Virus record (IMG/VR): IMGVR_UViG_3300021226_000189
Length of the DNA: 64,000 bases
From: a virus
Strand: one strand, 5' to 3'
The first letter of the stretch is position 1, and each line of letters starts with the position of its first letter. This document shows positions 7,250-64,000 of this stretch, piece after piece. A program made the position numbers and the translations under genes. The notes under the pieces were generated by a model. That model saw only the letters and a list, made by a program, of their open reading frames with translations, searched no databases and was not told where the DNA came from.

Positions 7250-8071
7250 TTTCGAGACTTCCTTTTCCATATCTTGTCTTTCTTTTAAAGTCAGGACTCT
7301 TGAAAAATGTTTATTCATTTCTTTAGTATCTAAACCTAATTCTTTGAATCCTATCAAATAATTACGGAAACGTTCTTTCAAACTGTTTGGATATGTTGCT
7401 GGATTTGGTCTACCGAAACGGTGCATCCACCTCAAAAACGGTAAACATAATGTTTTTTTACCGTTTTGACGATATTTTTCATGGATATAACCCTCTTCAA
7501 CACCAAATCCCCTAAATTCTTTATTGAATCCTAACCAAGAGTCCTTTCTACAAGAGAATAAACCCATTCCTTGAGACGGAATTTCAAATGGTGGGTTGTC
7601 TTTTGATTCCCCTCGTTCATCTGTTTGCCATGTCCCCCACATGTAGCTACTCCAAGTATCATCAAAATGTGTTGAATAGCTTTTGAAATCGTCATATACA
7701 ATAGGCCCCTGTAGTAAATTGCCTTCATCTAACCCATTATCATAAAATTCTATCAATTTTTTAATAGAATTTGGTTCTAAAAGAACATGGGAGTCGATAC
7801 ATAATACGTATGGAGTGTCTGCCAATTCAAAAACCTTATTTTTTACAGTAGTTGACTTATATTTGGTGAATGGGAGATATTGAAATGGTTCTTTTATCCA
7901 ATCTGTTAGCTCTCTAACGGCTTTACCATGTTCCGATGATGGATTATTGTCAATTATTACGAACTCGATATCATCCAATACTTCGCTATGATACATTCTT
8001 ATTGATTGTATGGTGAAATACAGTCCATCGAAATCATCATGGGTTGCCATGCCGATTGTTAATTTTCTCAT
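7232..8071 (-). CDS. glycosyltransferase, GT2/GT-A fold
   Basis: LTIGMAT, FVIIDNN, VLCIDSH (DxH), GF...FRGFGVEE. Confidence 0.8.
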   Translation of the reverse strand: MRKLTIGMATHDDFDGLYFTIQSIRMYHSEVLDDIEFVIIDNNPSSEHGKAVRELTDWIKEPFQYLPFTKYKSTTVKNKVFELADTPYVLCIDSHVLLEPNSIKKLIEFYDNGLDEGNLLQGPIVYDDFKSYSTHFDDTWSSYMWGTWQTDERGESKDNPPFEIPSQGMGLFSCRKDSWLGFNKEFRGFGVEEGYIHEKYRQNGKKTLCLPFLRWMHRFGRPNPATYPNSLKERFRNYLIGFKELGLDTKEMNKHFSRVLTLKERQDMEKEVSKLFENP

Positions 8072-8082
8072 GGTAATAATTA

Positions 8083-8727
8083 TCAGAATCCTAATATATT
8101 ACAACTCTTCGGTGGACATTTCACTGTGGTGAAGTCTGGAATATTAGTAGTTGTCGATGTTCTGATAATTGTAGTAGTCGTCGTAGTATTTATCCCAAAA
8201 TTTAATGACCCTGATAACGATGCGGGTGGTCTAGGCATAACGAAAACGATAGTTGATGTTCTTACAGTAGTAAAATTTGGTAAAGAAGGTGGTTCGGGGA
8301 CGATAGTTGTCGTCGGAGTTGGAGTGGAAGACGATGATGACGATGATGATGATGATGATGATGACATATCAACAACGTTGATATATAAATAGATATCGAA
8401 GTAATCTAAAGGATCAATATCACTCGTTAATGTTAATGTACCGTTATTAAAAGTTTCTACTTGAAATATTGGACTAATGTAAGATCTTGTTTCCGATGCA
8501 AAAATTATCGATATTTGATAATTACCATCTCCAAAATCTGTTAAATTGAATGTTTCTATCACTTGATTAAATTCATCAAGTGTTTGACTTTGATAATAAT
8601 TCTCAATTCCGATAGTATTGATTAATACTAATCCTGGAAAAAGATTACTCAGTGTATTTACTAGAGGATTACTACCAGTATATGATATTACCCCTAAAGA
8701 TACTGTCCTACCAGAGAAATCTATCAT
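8083..8727 (-). CDS. Ser/Thr/Pro-rich putative virion protein
   Basis: S13 run, TPTPTTT, TTTTTT, repeated P(N/D)FTTV; end of tail-fibre block. Confidence 0.65.
   Translation of the reverse strand: MIDFSGRTVSLGVISYTGSNPLVNTLSNLFPGLVLINTIGIENYYQSQTLDEFNQVIETFNLTDFGDGNYQISIIFASETRSYISPIFQVETFNNGTLTLTSDIDPLDYFDIYLYINVVDMSSSSSSSSSSSSSTPTPTTTIVPEPPSLPNFTTVRTSTIVFVMPRPPASLSGSLNFGINTTTTTTIIRTSTTTNIPDFTTVKCPPKSCNILGF
8327..8365. repeat. (GAT/GAC)n trinucleotide tract encoding 13 Ser on the minus strand
   Basis: gaagacgatgatgacgatgatgatgatgatgatgatgac. Confidence 0.9.
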
Positions 8728-9199: not shown

Positions 9200-10267
9200 T
9201 TAGTATGCGAAAATTGGGATTGCGAATCTACCGACACGATCACCTGTTTTAGTGGTTGTATCTCCTTCAAAAGTTAAAAATCCAGCAGAAGACAATCTAA
9301 TTCTGGTAGTAGAAATTCCGTTCGATGATATAGCTTCAAATTGTGTGATTCTAAGGTTAGGTATAGCACCGCTCAAAGTGTGGGCAGGTGTTCCACCAAA
9401 TATTGAAGATAACGAGTTAGCACCAAAACCAACGGCTGACAACCCAGTTAAAGAACTGAAAATTGAACCTTGGATTGCTCTCCTATCTCTGATTTGTGTC
9501 CAAGAATTAATATTTGTATTTGGTGTGGCGGTTAATTGATAAAATGTTCCGTCCAAGCTAGCTATGTCACCAATATTTGCACTGGACAATAGTAATAATG
9601 TTGTAACAGATTGTTGGGGTAAAAATATTTTATTAATAGCACCATAATTTAGATTCAATACGCCAGTATCGAACAAGAATTGATTCGGATTTACACGTAA
9701 TGTGATTTTATTACTATTACCACCACTAAGACCATTACCAAAAGATGATGATAAGATCTCTCTTTCAGTTAAAGAATTAGCATTCGGTGTGAATAATCCA
9801 CTTGAAAGACCGAAATAATTTGTATTATAATTGACTTGTAATTGATTATTTCTAATAACTAATCCATTTGAAACTGTATTAGGATTGATTTTGGATGCCG
9901 ATACCGAACTCATACCAATAGTAAGAGACGAATTTTGATCGTAAACAATATCAGTGGCAACTCTAGTAGCAATTCTACCCCAATTGTTGATATTAGTATG
10001 AGGTGTTGCTGTTAATTGATACCAAATATTATTAACTGGAACAATATCACCAACTTCAGCGAATGTGGATGATAAACTATTAACAATTGATAGGGGGGTG
10101 TTGATTTTATTGGTAGCTGGAACCCCTCCTAAAGTCACGCCATTGCCAACATATAATCTTTGAGTATCTGTTGTAAATGCGATTTCTCCTTGATCCAAAC
10201 GCACCAACAATCGCTGTGCATTAGTACCTCTACGAATTTTTATTTTTGAGATTAAAATTTGTGACAT
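9200..10267 (-). CDS. tail fibre protein with Mtd_N-like N-terminal domain
   Basis: IKIRRGT...GEIAFTTDTQRLYVGNG; internal duplicated YQLTATPxTNINxW module. Confidence 0.75.
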   Translation of the reverse strand: MSQILISKIKIRRGTNAQRLLVRLDQGEIAFTTDTQRLYVGNGVTLGGVPATNKINTPLSIVNSLSSTFAEVGDIVPVNNIWYQLTATPHTNINNWGRIATRVATDIVYDQNSSLTIGMSSVSASKINPNTVSNGLVIRNNQLQVNYNTNYFGLSSGLFTPNANSLTEREILSSSFGNGLSGGNSNKITLRVNPNQFLFDTGVLNLNYGAINKIFLPQQSVTTLLLLSSANIGDIASLDGTFYQLTATPNTNINSWTQIRDRRAIQGSIFSSLTGLSAVGFGANSLSSIFGGTPAHTLSGAIPNLRITQFEAISSNGISTTRIRLSSAGFLTFEGDTTTKTGDRVGRFAIPIFAY

Positions 10268-10275
10268 ATTTTTAA

Positions 10276-10938
10276 TTATCCAATTCTTCTCCAGACGTAA
10301 ATACCGTAACTAGGTGGAATATTAGTATGGGAATTACTACCCCCAACGTTTGATGTAAAACCTTGCGATGAATTAGCTGTCATATCATCGATATCTATAG
10401 ATCTTGTAGCGTTTCCAGGAGTGTCTTGCCTACTTATACCATATACACTACCATTAGCTTGATTATCAGCAGATGTTTTAGCGTAAACACCATTTAAATG
10501 ATTATGTGTTGGGATTTGGTCTGTCGTTAGTTTAACTGAATATACTCCCCTAATATCATTACCAGAGATAAAAGCGACAGATTCTGAATTAACATCTACC
10601 CCCGTCCCAACACCTACTAAAAATCTTCCTTGAGAAATCTGTTCCCATGAAGTTCCAGTGAATCTAGATTGTGGATTCGTATCATCGAAACTCAGATATA
10701 CCGAATTTACTGGATAGAGATAATCAATGATAGTATTGAACCCTTCAACTGTTAATTTTTCAGTGGAAAGTGTTCCTGAAACATGAACACCATCTTTACC
10801 AACGTTTAATGCTGTTTTATTACCCAATCCGTCAAATACTGGAACTTTATTTGAAGAATCTACTGGGGTATTGGAAGTATGGAGCATACCTTTGTATGAA
10901 TCCGAAATGAATTGGTCTGTAAGATCTGGAAGTGCCAT
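10276..10938 (-). CDS. baseplate/tail-collar protein (gp10 C-terminal-like)
   Basis: YPVNSVY...W..I.QGRFLVGVG...GG...HTNIPPSYGIYVWRRIG. Confidence 0.7.
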   Translation of the reverse strand: MALPDLTDQFISDSYKGMLHTSNTPVDSSNKVPVFDGLGNKTALNVGKDGVHVSGTLSTEKLTVEGFNTIIDYLYPVNSVYLSFDDTNPQSRFTGTSWEQISQGRFLVGVGTGVDVNSESVAFISGNDIRGVYSVKLTTDQIPTHNHLNGVYAKTSADNQANGSVYGISRQDTPGNATRSIDIDDMTANSSQGFTSNVGGSNSHTNIPPSYGIYVWRRIG

Positions 10939-52523: not shown

Positions 52524-53612
52524 ATGGATATCAAACAAGAAGTAATCGACGCACGTATCAATAAAGGATGGACATTCTCCGCAATTTACGATACATATGG
52601 AGTCCCTAAGAGTACTGCTCAAGGATGGTTGAAAAAACACTTTGACGAAAGCGTTGAAGAAGATGTTGTGGAAACCCCCACACCTTACCAAGAATATAAA
52701 CAGGGTTATGTGGTGGAAACCATGCAGCGAGAAAAACCACAAAAATTCAAAAAGACTGAAGATGAAGTCTTTGCTTTTCTTGAACAACTTGCTCCTATTA
52801 AAGTTGATGGTTTGAATAATAATTCTGTATCCTATGGTTTGAATGAATATGCGGTTGTTGGGTCTGATTTCCATTTTGGTTGTCATGATGAATCAGCTAT
52901 TAATATCTTCCTTGAAACGATTGCTGAATTACAACCAAAAACGATTGTGTTGAACGGTGATACTATGGATATGCTCGCTATTTCCAAATATCCAAAAGAT
53001 ATTAAAAAGCATTGGAGTCTTTTGGATGAACGTAAAGCTTACCACCAATTCTTGGACGATTTAATTTCGGTTTCGAATGGTGCTAAAATCTATGAGACTG
53101 TTTCTAATCACAGTGGACAATCCATTGATGGTAGATGGAGACGTTACCTCTCTGATCGTTTGGGGGAACTTGGTTGCCTTCCAGAGATTACTGATAAATT
53201 GAGTTACCAGAACGTGTTCATGGGTGACTATCAAAATCATGTAGAACATGTTGATTATGTAGACCTGAATGGATTGATCGTAACACACGGAACAACGGTG
53301 CGCGGTGCAGGAGGCGCATCTGCTAAAGGGGAGATTGAAAAGTGGCATACGAGTATCTTACATGGCCACACACATCGCTGTGGGCAGACTTTGAAACGTG
53401 TTCCAGCAATTGGTAATCGCGGTGAGAAGCAGATTGTAGGTATAGAATCGGGGTGTCTTTGCTCTCTCGATGCTGCATACGGTTCCGCTATGAATTGGAA
53501 TCAGGGGTTTGGTATCGTTGCTTTGGGTAATGAATCTTTCGGATATGAGCAAGTATTTGTGAATAATGGCATTGCAAACGTGGCATCACTTGGAAAAACT
53601 ATCAGAGGGTAG
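52524..53612 (+). CDS. calcineurin-like metallophosphoesterase with N-terminal HTH
   Basis: GSDFHFG, LNGD..D, SNH, THG, HGHTHR. Confidence 0.85.
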   Translation: MDIKQEVIDARINKGWTFSAIYDTYGVPKSTAQGWLKKHFDESVEEDVVETPTPYQEYKQGYVVETMQREKPQKFKKTEDEVFAFLEQLAPIKVDGLNNNSVSYGLNEYAVVGSDFHFGCHDESAINIFLETIAELQPKTIVLNGDTMDMLAISKYPKDIKKHWSLLDERKAYHQFLDDLISVSNGAKIYETVSNHSGQSIDGRWRRYLSDRLGELGCLPEITDKLSYQNVFMGDYQNHVEHVDYVDLNGLIVTHGTTVRGAGGASAKGEIEKWHTSILHGHTHRCGQTLKRVPAIGNRGEKQIVGIESGCLCSLDAAYGSAMNWNQGFGIVALGNESFGYEQVFVNNGIANVASLGKTIRG

Positions 53613-54242
53613 AAACTCCCATTTATATCCTTTATGGGAATTCGTACAACCTCTACAAACATTTCCAACTTGTTTAGGTGTGAACCCACCTTCTTTTGTT
53701 GAAGCTACAGATTCCCATTTTTTCACAATTTCCCCATTTATGGTTTTCTGTAAAACTGGTTTATAAGAAACAATATTTTTCCTGCCGATATTAGATGATC
53801 TAATTTTTTCTACATGTTCTGGTGATAATTTTTTTCCTCTATGAGCGGCTGCGATTTTATCTTTGGTTTCTTGAGAAAGTTTTTTACCTATCATAGAAAG
53901 TCTTTGTTCTTCTTTCATTCTCCTTCCAATTATTCTACGTCCACTTGTCCCTTCCCCGCCGTTAGTTAAATTCACCAATGTTCCTTCATTTAAATCTTTT
54001 CTACCATATAATTTTATAAATTCTTTTTCTTTTTTGAAAAGTTCATCTTTGGATAATTCATCCATCAAGATCTCAACTTCAAATGGAGTATTTTTAATAA
54101 CGTTTTTCCAAAACACGCTTCTTTTATAAGAATTATAAGCTCTTGAATATCTATGCCCATATTTCCTATGAATACCAATTCCAATATAAAATACTTCATT
54201 CGTGTCTAGCCTTACATGTCTATATAGATAACCTGTGGTCAT
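53586..54242 (-). mobile_element. free-standing GIY-YIG-type homing endonuclease with NUMOD3/NUMOD1 repeats
   Basis: GYLYRH...FYIGIG, LVNLTNGGEG, KLSQETKDKI..AH.GK, KPVLQ...G..V..W.S; own TAAATA (54248-54253). Confidence 0.8.
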
Positions 54243-54335
54243 ATATTTATTTAGTTAAAAATTCAAAAATAAACCAATTTACAAGAGTTCCATATTATGT
54301 GTTTACATTTTAACGATTTGTGGTTAAATAATCAC

Positions 54336-61096: not shown

Positions 61097-61102
61097 GAGC
61101 TT

Positions 61103-61537
61103 ATGAAAATTCAAATCTCAACAGAAGAGAGGCAAAAAATCCTTAGCTTTAAAATTGATTATAAACGAAAACTTGATCATGGAGAAGTCGATCCTCTTAG
61201 TAGCTCGATTAAGGTGAAGGATTTTGTTCTGGATTTTTTGAAAAATCGCGGAATCAAAAGACCCAAAGTTTATGAGCAAGCGATTTATGCTTTTGAAAGC
61301 GTTGGAATGCATACTGATAATATCTCCCCAAAATCAGCAATGACGCTCTGTTTAATGATTTCGGGAAGTGGTAAGCTTTTTGCATGGGATGGTAAAAAAG
61401 TGGATGGATGTTGGTTGAACAAAGGAGAAGGTGCTATTTTTGATTTCAACCTCCCCCATTCATTCGAAACGAATAAAAAATGCCAAGCATTTCTAATTGA
61501 CATTCCTAAAAAATATAAAAAAATATTTTACAATTAA
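61103..61537 (+). CDS. cupin-fold, putative 2OG-Fe(II) oxygenase
   Basis: HTD (HxD) ... G.G..F...LPHS (distal His); start moved to 61103. Confidence 0.6.
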   Translation: MKIQISTEERQKILSFKIDYKRKLDHGEVDPLSSSIKVKDFVLDFLKNRGIKRPKVYEQAIYAFESVGMHTDNISPKSAMTLCLMISGSGKLFAWDGKKVDGCWLNKGEGAIFDFNLPHSFETNKKCQAFLIDIPKKYKKIFYN

Positions 61538-61546
61538 TTATTTGAC

Positions 61547-61636
61547 ATGAAACTCCCAAGTACAGAAGAATTTAACTTCAAAGATTGCACCATCGCTGGC
61601 GATGAGTGCTGGCTTATCATGCGATTCATTTTTTAA
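61547..61636 (+). pseudogene. orphaned 5' end of the RNA ligase gene
   Basis: MKLPSTEEFNFKDCTIAGDECWLI aligns with LP--EGFVAKRRTMFGKNMVLI of the 62304 ORF; reading then runs into the HEG 3' end. Confidence 0.65.
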
Positions 61637-62264
61637 ATTCCCATCTAAAACCAAAAGCGGTTTTCATCCGAATCCCCTTAATTGCCTTTGATATATCACC
61701 AGTTCTATTTTTACCATTACTCAAAAAATTAGTAGCATCTTTTATGGAATCCCATTCTGCAATAATTTCGTCGTTCGCAGGGTTTATTTGTAATATTGGT
61801 TTTTTAGTCTTTTTTCTTATTTTTTCTATTGATTCTTGTGATATTTTTCTACCTTTGAAAATTTTAGATAACTTTTCTCTTGTTTTGGAGCTTACGACTT
61901 TTCCCCTATGGGTATCACCTATTTTTTTCTTGGATTCTTCTGTGTGTTTCATACCAGTCAAATCCAGCCCCCTTTTACAAACATTGTATCCGCTCGGAAC
62001 TAGAGAATTAAATTTGATTATTAACTGCTCTTCTAAATTTAATAGATCAATTTTTTTAAAATTTGGTAAATATTCGACATAAACTTCAAAATTTTCATCC
62101 CCGTAACGATCCAAAGCTTTACCTATTACTTGATATCTCTCTTTTTTATAGCGGCGCAACCTTTTTTTAATACTTACAGATTCACCTACATAATATTTAC
62201 CATTTACTAAGCATTTTATAACGTATATCCCAGGCACGTCTTCGAATTTATCAAATATCTTCAT
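61626..62264 (-). mobile_element. free-standing GIY-YIG homing endonuclease with NUMOD3/NUMOD1
   Basis: GIYVI...YYVGES...R, GYN, KHTEESKKKI...H.GK, KPILQ; own TAAATA (62271-62276). Confidence 0.9.
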
Positions 62265-62303
62265 AAATATTATTTACACTTTTATCATAAAACTTCAATT
62301 AGA

Positions 62304-63401
62304 ATGAAAAATACTTTAAATTTTTATAGAAATCTTCCAGAAGGGTTTGTAGCGAAGAGGAGAACCATGTTCGGCAAGAATATGGTGCTAATCACCCCTA
62401 CGGATATTAAGACAAAATGGTGCGAAAAAACTGAATTTTTTCGCAGTTGTCTATTTGACGAGGACACTGGTAAAATTTATAGCTTAGGTTTCAAAAAATT
62501 TAAAAATTGGGGCGAAGACCCAGAATTTCAACCGTGGGATCATTCTTGGGAGTTTGAGGCTCGTTACAAAGTAGATGGGTCACTGCTTTGTATATCAAAA
62601 ATTGATGGTAATATCTTGATGCGAACAAGGGGTGTGTTTGACGCGAGAGAACATGAGACTGGTGACGAATTGGACGGATTTATTGAAAAGTATCCGCTTC
62701 TTTACGAAAACGAATTTATTAATTCTGAAAATTATACCATTTTATGCGAACACACAACTCCGAAAAGAATTATCGTTTTGCGTGAAAGCGATGAACCAAA
62801 ATTGACTCTTTTGGGCATTATTTGTCATAAGACAGGGCAATATGTCTCACAATGCGTTTTGGATGGTTTTGCGCAGCGAATTGGAATTGATCGACCTCAA
62901 AAATATATTTATAAAAATATCGCAGATTGTATTGCCGATGTTGAAGCGTGGAGAGGGAAGGAGGGGGTTGTTGCTTACTCTCCTGACGGTCAGACATTGA
63001 AAAAATTTAAAAGTAGTCATTATCTTTCACTCCATAAATTATCGTTTGGTTTGAGAGGGTTGGACAATGTTTTAGATTTGTTTGTCGAGTCTCCAAGATT
63101 TTTGGATTATCAAGATTTTTATAATTATGTGTTGGAGTCTCTGGACTTCGAAATAGCAGAAAAAATTAAAGATGAAGCGCGTCAAATCACCGATGCTTAT
63201 GCAAAATTTGTGAAAGGTGTTGAGAAAATGCGTGAACGGATGGAGTTCATTCGTAATTATGCTACTCGAAAAGAGCAAGCTGCGGCGATTCAAGAAGAGT
63301 TCACGGGATGGAAAACGTCGATTGCGTTCCTACTTCTTGACAATCGAGAAATTGATGATAAAGTCGTGCGTAAGGCAATGGAGAAAATATTAGAATTATG
63401 A
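62304..63401 (+). CDS. RNA ligase (T4 Rnl1-like)
   Basis: GFKKFKNWGE, adenylation motif KVDGSL, TRG, EGVV, KFKS..Y. Confidence 0.88.
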   Translation: MKNTLNFYRNLPEGFVAKRRTMFGKNMVLITPTDIKTKWCEKTEFFRSCLFDEDTGKIYSLGFKKFKNWGEDPEFQPWDHSWEFEARYKVDGSLLCISKIDGNILMRTRGVFDAREHETGDELDGFIEKYPLLYENEFINSENYTILCEHTTPKRIIVLRESDEPKLTLLGIICHKTGQYVSQCVLDGFAQRIGIDRPQKYIYKNIADCIADVEAWRGKEGVVAYSPDGQTLKKFKSSHYLSLHKLSFGLRGLDNVLDLFVESPRFLDYQDFYNYVLESLDFEIAEKIKDEARQITDAYAKFVKGVEKMRERMEFIRNYATRKEQAAAIQEEFTGWKTSIAFLLLDNREIDDKVVRKAMEKILEL

Positions 63402-64000
63402 TACTCATTAACAGTTATTTCGAAAACGAGCGAGAGCTTTGGGGTGAACATATCTTTTGTGAAGACTTGTGCCGCGATGAAGATATTCGGCGTAATGGTT
63501 TCACACCTATTGTAGCGCGAGGAAGCATTGCTTTCGACAATAGCGTAAAGTTTGCACTCAAGACTCTTGGACTGCCTGATTTGCGCTTTCCATTCAATAA
63601 TGACCCACGATTCTATAATTACAGCCATTGGAAATCCCTGCCTGATTTGTTAAACGCTGATTGTTGGTTCGATACATGGGGAGAAGTATCTGAATCTTTG
63701 GAGCATCGTGACAAGCTATGGATTCGCAGTGCTAGTGGTAATAAAAACTTTACTGGTGGCGTTTTCACGCGCAGTGAATTCATGAACGAAGTCGAATATT
63801 TAAAACAAATAAATAGCGACGATATTATGTTTGTGGTTGCTCACCCAAAAACAATCAACCGCGAGTATCGCTTTGTGTTTGTTGGCGGCAAAGTAATCAG
63901 CAGCAGTCTTTACATGGAGAATGGTAATCCTAAACAAGGAGAACATGCACCTGATGATCTTGTTAAATTCGCGCAGAAATGGTTCGACAGTCAATGTCTT
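63398..64000 (+). CDS. R2K-clade ATP-grasp protein (runs off the window edge; not in ORF track)
   Basis: Manual translation: WIRSASGNKNFTGGV ... INREYRFVFVGGKVISSSLY; open to 64000. Confidence 0.7.
   Translation, partial: MILINSYFENERELWGEHIFCEDLCRDEDIRRNGFTPIVARGSIAFDNSVKFALKTLGLPDLRFPFNNDPRFYNYSHWKSLPDLLNADCWFDTWGEVSESLEHRDKLWIRSASGNKNFTGGVFTRSEFMNEVEYLKQINSDDIMFVVAHPKTINREYRFVFVGGKVISSSLYMENGNPKQGEHAPDDLVKFAQKWFDSQCL

Follow-up and report, generated by a model that had tools for sequence, protein, structure and literature searches.

The IMG/VR virus record IMGVR_UViG_3300021226_000189 is an 81-kb viral contig with a completeness estimate of 39%, and the stretch of 64,000 nucleotides of it that was analysed (the window) carries an RNA ligase gene of the RnlA type which has very likely been invaded by a free-standing homing endonuclease element, the 5' part of the gene having been replaced in the process and splicing having played no part. 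On the best reading of the locus the mobile unit consists of an antisense GIY-YIG endonuclease gene, a spacer of 39 nt and the 5' part of a diverged allele of the ligase, referred to here as type B; the start of the resident allele (type A) survives as a short relic beyond the endonuclease gene (Table 1). The arrangement of relic, antisense endonuclease gene and type B ligase is found in three lineages, that of the window included, with three unrelated endonuclease families. An earlier, sequence-only reading of the window had proposed an event of this kind and in that respect it stands, but the extent of the import and the position of the right-hand junction are not as it supposed.

The short open reading frame (ORF) that contains the relic occupies positions 61547 to 61636 of the plus strand, is 29 codons long and begins 9 nt beyond the stop codon of the upstream gene; it, the antisense GIY-YIG ORF and the ligase gene beginning at 62304 all lie where the earlier reading had placed them. 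The resemblance of its product to a ligase N-terminus, also claimed then, goes far beyond chance. Residues 3-24 of the relic are identical at 22 of 22 positions to the N-terminus of the ligase P0007, the sole perfect match among 120 ligase clusters, as against about 6 of 24 for the N-terminus of the functional ligase of the window. P0007 was found by a search of 5.8 billion proteins and its contig, L013, is the closest syntenic relative without the endonuclease; there the reading frame of the relic-like start runs on uninterrupted into the ligase. In 11 endonuclease-free relatives from IMG/VR (L002-L012), whose ligases are about 51% identical overall, the first 24 residues match the relic at 20 or 21 of 24 positions and the ligase again continues unbroken. 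These comparisons confirm the short ORF as the displaced start of a resident T4 RnlA-type ligase and uphold the view that the cassette lies between this displaced native 5' end and a ligase with a foreign, diverged start. At the DNA level the relic and L013 differ at 14 nt in 11 codons, and all of the differences are synonymous, so that the insertion is recent relative to the split between the window and L013, nearly all of the divergence being older than the insertion and the relic having hardly decayed. The relic ends within the second most conserved nine-residue block, positions 18-26, of the 102 type A clusters. A search with a degenerate DNA pattern for further relics ending at the same junction yielded only intact type A genes, with N replacing T past the conserved L-I.

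The ligase (62304-63401, plus strand, 365 aa) matches PF09511 (RNA_lig_T4_1) with a score of 43.6 bits, the cut-off being 28.3, as well as phrog_562 over residues 35-363 (E 1e-33). In the comparison with the T4 Rnl1 structure 2C5U (E 1e-4) its KVDGS is aligned with KEDGS of the motif I lysine region, and EGVV and KKFK, representing motifs IV and V, are legible in the translation within blocks that are conserved across the 102 clusters. The sequence is thus that of a member of the T4 Rnl1 (RnlA) family and of a putative RNA end-joining enzyme; the exact protein has no record in the contig index. Among the 120 clusters of the family 102 are of type A, with a start like that of the relic, and eight, including the window, are of type B. 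Partition trees place residues 1-190 of the window ligase within the type B clade with a support of 0.998, and their protein identity is 77-79% to the type B ligases P0002-P0005 and 44% to P0007. Residues 196-290 group weakly with P0009, P0010 and P0013 (support 0.875), and residues 300-365 are 97-98% identical at the protein level to P0007 and P0029. The suggestion that the ligase is chimeric is therefore borne out, with an N-terminal part of type B and a C-terminal part of the resident kind.

DNA identities along the gene were taken from a codon-threaded alignment in a sliding comparison with L013 and with the type B gene of L014. Identity to L014 stands at 75-82% as far as about codon 190 and drops to 53-65% beyond it; identity to L013 is 32-57% over codons 1-60, reaches 0.88 from codon 301 and is 95-98% over codons 311-365. 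The middle segment shows about 55-65% identity to both, except for codons 201-221, which are 70-80% identical to L013. It was on the extent of the exchange that the sequence-only reading went astray, having taken it for a short replacement of 24-32 codons bounded on the right by CTAATCA at 62388-62394, the counterpart of CTTATCA at 61613-61619. Both heptamers are present, but the ligase does not return to resident sequence at the second of them: codons 31-60, downstream of it, are 35-57% identical to L013 as against 68-77% to L014. Since the type B affinity continues past CTAATCA, to about codon 190, the heptamer only marks the homologous codons (L-I-T) of the two N-termini, and identity to the resident type comes back only from about codon 300-310. 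The imported tract therefore comprises at least 190 codons, and probably about 295, and it includes the catalytic lysine motif; the middle segment is probably the donor's own backbone. Separately, an inverted repeat of 10-11 bp with a T-rich tail on both strands was observed at 62421-62445, within codons 40-47 of the ligase, and is absent at the equivalent position of the type B genes of L014, L017, L020, L099, L021 and L101.

The antisense gene encodes a product of 212 aa that matches PF01541 (GIY-YIG) over residues 11-94 (E 1.6e-10) and homing endonuclease families of PHROG, among them phrog_314 (E 1e-25), and in which the GIY and YVG motifs are legible; a search of PDB with its sequence gave no match. 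Its stop codon lies 7 nt from the left junction. The gene is not contained in an intron or an intein, being antisense to a ligase that has its own start codon, and no Rfam intron match was obtained, which agrees with the non-splicing mode of invasion originally suggested. In L013 and L002 the same flanking genes enclose an uninterrupted ligase and there is no endonuclease gene, so that the locus shows a presence/absence polymorphism. Relatives of the endonuclease were found at 76 loci, all of them at most 47% identical and none adjoining a ligase, and thus no donor is identified among them. TATTTACAC occurs both in the spacer that separates the start codons of endonuclease and ligase and in its counterpart in L014, and the spacer of the window may hold divergent promoters. 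Weak sigma-70-like matches occur in it on both strands (9/12 each), and the promoter scan as a whole returned weak consensus matches only, 15 against 8.5 expected, which are given no weight as evidence. A scan for terminators between the relic and the ligase start found no terminator-like site. The window also contains a second antisense GIY-YIG-like gene (53586-54242, minus strand, 218 aa) with a Seg-like C-terminal region, which sits between a metallophosphoesterase gene (52524-53612), the last 27 nt of which it overlaps, and an HExxH gene at 54297; its product matches residues 115-210 of the ligase-linked endonuclease at 31%.

The two sister systems were found in other phages with type B ligases. 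In one of them (L014-L019; ligases P0002 and P0004) the context is rIIB, a gene of 65 aa and the ligase, and directly 5' of the ligase lies an antisense gene of a third type of endonuclease, beyond which there is a relic of the type A start 10 codons in length. This third type is rich in zinc ribbons, with several CxxC pairs, and belongs to no Pfam family, and the PHROGs to which it corresponds are annotated as HNH or homing endonuclease. Three lineages have it 5' of a type B ligase, and it may represent an undescribed homing endonuclease family. Matched empty sites are available for this system in L105-L107, which carry the type A ligase P0037 and are 83-92% identical in DNA to L014-L019. When filled and empty sites are compared, homology on the left stops at ligase codon 10/11 and on the right resumes sharply at codon 193, so that 538 nt have given way to 1387 nt, which comprise the endonuclease gene as well as 586 nt belonging to the type B ligase. 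Positions 212-230, the block most conserved in the 102 type A clusters, begin shortly after the right boundary. In the other system (L020; type B ligase P0006) a relic of 24 codons ends at the same nucleotide as that of the window and is followed by an antisense LAGLIDADG gene (PF14528; phrog_4645, E 1e-40), the stop codon of which overlaps the last relic codon; the ligase starts 19 nt beyond the start of the endonuclease gene.

There are signs in these relatives that the endonuclease genes decay. The third-type endonuclease has 257 aa in L016 and only 212, 155 and 129 aa in L014, L015 and L017, respectively, and the relic of L017 carries amino-acid changes. In L099 a relic of about eight codons and only about the first 20 codons of a third-type endonuclease gene precede the type B ligase, a stage of endonuclease loss. 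Within the close type B clade a relic together with an endonuclease gene or a stub of one is found at every ligase with readable upstream DNA. Searches for more loci with the type B alignment yielded only three in IMG/VR and one in the metagenome collection.

A mechanism can be proposed in which the endonuclease would cut the common type A allele in or near the highly conserved codons 18-26, and repair of the break would draw on the donor, with copying that begins at the nearest downstream homology that can be used and proceeds in reverse over the type B 5' part and the spacer to take in the endonuclease gene as well. On the right, recombination would be resolved only where the DNA of the two types is similar again, that is, in the conserved block past codon 193 or further on, and in the window phage at about codon 295-310. 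On the left, resident sequence would be kept up to the break and the left end joined at or near it, in the first event by an illegitimate join, and in later transfers with the relic and the upstream gene acting as a left homology arm, as has been proposed for the FBA1 fragment of the yeast WHO elements. The outcome would be a full-length chimeric ligase with its own start, in which the target region has been replaced and half of the old site is stranded in the relic. The 27-nt site of the relic and L013 differs on direct reading at about 10 positions from the homologous site of the type B copy. We infer from the sequences that the 212-aa protein cleaves the endonuclease-free type A allele, that the type B allele is resistant to the endonuclease linked to it and that the chimeric ligase is active; the destruction of the target site and the cleavage of type A alleles are plausible. 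The end of the relic in a conserved block and the right boundary of the L014-L019 system before the most conserved block fit the known habits of homing endonucleases, which target conserved coding sequence and whose co-conversion extends to the point where the similarity of donor and recipient suffices for recombination (PMC2988022).

A number of observations weigh against invasion by an endonuclease element as set out here. No donor genome was found for the cassette of the window, the closest type B module being 77-79% identical and the closest endonuclease at most 47%. The GIY-YIG system of the window and the LAGLIDADG system of L020 share their left junction to within a few nt, which is poorly explained by independent cutting and may point to a history that has not been reconstructed. 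The middle segment of the ligase matches neither parent well and more than one recombination event may have been involved. Distant type B ligases without a relic exist as well, in L021 and L100 with no endonuclease and in L101 with a third-type endonuclease; type B is accordingly an ordinary if rare lineage that is not always tied to an endonuclease, and a possible source of donors.

Some of these facts would be accommodated if there had been no more than ordinary illegitimate or homologous recombination between phages with different ligase alleles, the endonuclease being a passenger that did not cut the recipient. The ligase family is generally mosaic, the middle segment grouping with a third lineage; L101 has an endonuclease gene 5' of a type B-like ligase and no relic; and the cleavage of type A by the GIY-YIG protein is a prediction from sequence, which counts against the invasion reading as well. 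However, three lineages, whose endonucleases belong to three unrelated families, have the layout of relic, endonuclease and type B ligase in common, and the relics end inside conserved coding sequence beside the 3' end of the endonuclease gene. Break-induced repair is expected to leave such a signature, which for passengers would be an improbable coincidence, and ordinary recombination is therefore considered unlikely. A duplication in place of the ligase 5' end around an inserted endonuclease gene, with fast divergence of one copy, would also leave two homologous N-termini in direct orientation, but the functional N-terminal part is 77-79% identical to ligases of other lineages, in a clade with a support of 0.998, and it is the relic that is identical to the resident type; moreover, the divergence spans at least 190 codons that were not duplicated, and the partition trees contradict such an origin, which is very improbable.

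It could also be supposed that the relic is a true first exon and that the 775 nt up to 62394 are a spliced intron, giving a ligase with a type A N-terminus, since a join of 61619 to 62395 is in frame and CT(T/A)ATCA is present at both ends. An in-frame join is automatic, however, from the homology of the two N-termini, and no Rfam intron family was matched even at E values up to 1. The antisense ORF takes up 639 of the 775 nt and so leaves no room for a ribozyme, as 91 of the remaining 136 nt or so encode the conserved type B N-terminus, and in the relic-free genomes L021 and L100 this N-terminus is the translated and conserved beginning of the ligase. In the L014-L019 system, where the relic stops at codon 10, such a join would be impossible. 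The intron can hardly be entertained on this evidence. The window comes from a metagenome-assembled contig that is by estimate far from complete, and a chimera assembled from two phage strains might be suspected. However, two contigs, X1 record 2 and X4 record 20, each from a different and independent freshwater metagenome study, span the junction between relic and endonuclease gene, separate contigs obtained in several runs and studies extend across the boundary between endonuclease and ligase, and the layout recurs in independent assemblies of other lineages, so that the likelihood of an assembly artefact is negligible.

Endonuclease genes enter coding sequence, in the usual account, only inside introns or inteins and otherwise sit between genes. 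Invasion with replacement of a gene end is nevertheless already known, from the WHO elements of yeast and from the mobile ORFs (mORFs) of fungal mitochondria (PMC7282813, PMC3630166), and it is to these that the window element is likened, by analogy of mechanism and not as a homologous family. At the yeast FBA1 locus (Coughlan et al. 2020, eLife 9:e55336, PMC7282813), as in the window, the endonuclease gene lies beside its target gene, the end of which has been replaced by the donor's version (a resistant one in the case of WHO), and the full-length gene is a chimera whose two ends have discordant phylogenies. The displaced native end is left as a fragment beyond the endonuclease gene, where the authors of the WHO study propose that it acts as a homology arm; endonuclease genes and fragments later decay, and there is no splicing. 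The WHO elements differ in that they replace the 3' end, whereas the window element replaces the 5' end together with the start codon and spacer, and in that their proteins are of an intein-like LAGLIDADG/zinc-finger type operating in diploid meiosis, as opposed to a GIY-YIG gene antisense to its target in a phage. Tandem clusters of older relics like those of WHO were not seen in the window, and the allele-specific cleavage that has been shown for WHO is for the window element a prediction.

In the mORFs a GIY-YIG or LAGLIDADG ORF with a diverged copy of the gene end is inserted in a protein gene, the native end lying beyond the ORF. Those with foreign C-termini are described for the Glomus mitochondrial genes atp6, atp9, cox2 and nad3 (PMC3630166), and the same source gives Allomyces macrogynus atp6 as a further case after Paquin et al. 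1994. The native end has 100% protein identity to relatives and only synonymous changes in its DNA, and the same is true of the relic of the window. It is the 3' end of genes in organelle genomes that mORFs replace, usually over 17-80 codons and often in frame and in the orientation of the host gene, whereas the window belongs to a phage genome, has its endonuclease gene in antisense orientation and shows replacement of at least 190 codons of the 5' part. Among phages, the intronless homing of the free-standing T4 endonucleases SegF, SegG and MobE (reviewed in PMC2988022) bears a likeness to the window system, these GIY-YIG or HNH genes cutting the neighbouring gene in genomes that lack them and spreading as the break is repaired, with a localized replacement of alleles that results from the co-conversion of flanking markers. 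In the T4 cases, however, the endonuclease lies between genes, both flanks are homologous and no relic of the target is left, whereas in the window the left junction is inside coding sequence and the displaced start persists. Insertions of endonuclease genes within genes are tolerated in other ways in nrdA of Aeh1, split by mobE, and in T4 genes 39 and 60 with mobA (PMC2988022), where the gene survives as two polypeptides that assemble; in the window it remains in one piece because the replacement 5' part came with the endonuclease. Literature on a homing endonuclease targeting rnlA, on a 5'-end relic beside a phage endonuclease gene, or on gene-end replacement of this kind in a phage or at a 5' end, was not found, but coverage was incomplete and novelty is not proven.

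The window and its two sister systems thus suggest a third route by which an endonuclease can enter coding sequence in phages, namely by bringing a replacement for the gene part that it displaces, and they offer an explanation for the mosaic make-up, from distant lineages, of a core enzyme of RNA repair. A broader possibility, to which we give neither more nor less credence than to its opposite, is that in a group of T4-like or jumbo phages of fresh water the RnlA gene is permanently contested ground, on which at least three unrelated endonuclease families (GIY-YIG, LAGLIDADG and zinc-ribbon) have spread with the same rare type B front half as a shared immunity module, each leaving a relic as left homology arm. 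Were this so, these systems would be the phage counterpart of the yeast WHO elements acting on the 5' end, and gene-end replacement would be a general third route beside introns and inteins. A single conserved coding site of 27 nt, or sequence close to it, is probably the target of all three candidate endonucleases, which would be a case of target convergence between families. The natural chimeras also map the points at which an Rnl1-type ligase tolerates the swapping of domains, past codon 193 and near codon 300, and in the annotation of metagenomic phages a short ORF matching the start of the gene that lies beyond an antisense endonuclease gene can serve as a signature of such events.

Table 1. 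Features of the ligase locus in the window and, in the last row, positions of the third endonuclease type on other contigs
Feature	Position	Strand	Remarks
Upstream gene, 144 aa	61103-61537	+	Left resident flank, common to endonuclease-free relatives
Relic of type A ligase 5' end, 24 codons + 1 nt	61547-61619	+	ORF extends past the homology to a stop at 61634-61636
Left junction of resident and imported DNA	61619-61620		Uncertainty 1-2 nt; homology to intact type A genes ends past TGGCTTATCA
GIY-YIG homing endonuclease gene, intact, free-standing, 212 aa	61626-62264	-	PF01541, phrog_314
Spacer, 39 nt, between divergent endonuclease and ligase start codons	62265-62303		Imported along with the ligase module
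Ligase module of type B with the motif I lysine (KVDGS), about codons 1-193	62304-62880	+	Imported
Middle ligase segment	62881-63189	+	Origin uncertain, probably donor's own backbone
Ligase 3' end, resident	63190-63401	+	Crossover to recipient sequence at about codon 295-310
R2K-clade ATP-grasp gene	63398-64000	+	Right resident flank; overlaps ligase stop (ATGA); PF18299, E 6.6e-8
Third-type endonuclease, 257-270 aa	L016 1835-2608; L101 2667-3479	-; -	

The genes on either side of the cassette tie the locus to its endonuclease-free relatives. L013 is syntenic with the window and its flanks are 82-88% identical in DNA, the upstream gene being 82% identical to L013 7514-7993 and the R2K gene 88% identical to L013 10378-10989. 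The product of the upstream gene has 72% protein identity to that of the gene immediately 5' of the ligase in L002, where this homologue stops 14 nt before the ligase start, and the gene order is that of the window minus the cassette. The upstream gene itself had no match in Pfam or PHROG, and the label of cupin given to it in the earlier reading is unverified. A megablast search of the region against GenBank phages produced no match, and hence no close relative there, and tblastn of the ligase against GenBank found only RnlA of coliphages at about 31%, which is uninformative on synteny.

Several of the contigs examined show variation around the locus. In X1 record 2, which covers 61565-61765 of the window, the letters 5' of 61565 resemble the L013-type start M-I-T-L-P and not the M-K-L-P of the window, and the cassette seems to be present in a second, slightly different background within the same sample. 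In X2 record 7, from the contig of a relative, precisely the 444 nt between the start codons of the upstream gene and of the relic or ligase are missing (window 61102-61547), so that the 144-aa gene is itself present or absent among relatives. X1 record 1 (1456 nt, at a higher depth of 17) matches the upstream gene to 61523 and, after 314 letters without a match, returns to the window at 63183, near the resumption of the resident ligase. An entire type A ligase would not fit into this space, and the record may come from a relative with a largely deleted ligase or be a mis-joined contig. In L013 there is a 72-codon in-frame extension 5' of the ligase start (8001-8219), and between its ligase and R2K gene (9296-10400) lie four extra small ORFs, none of which is found in the window.

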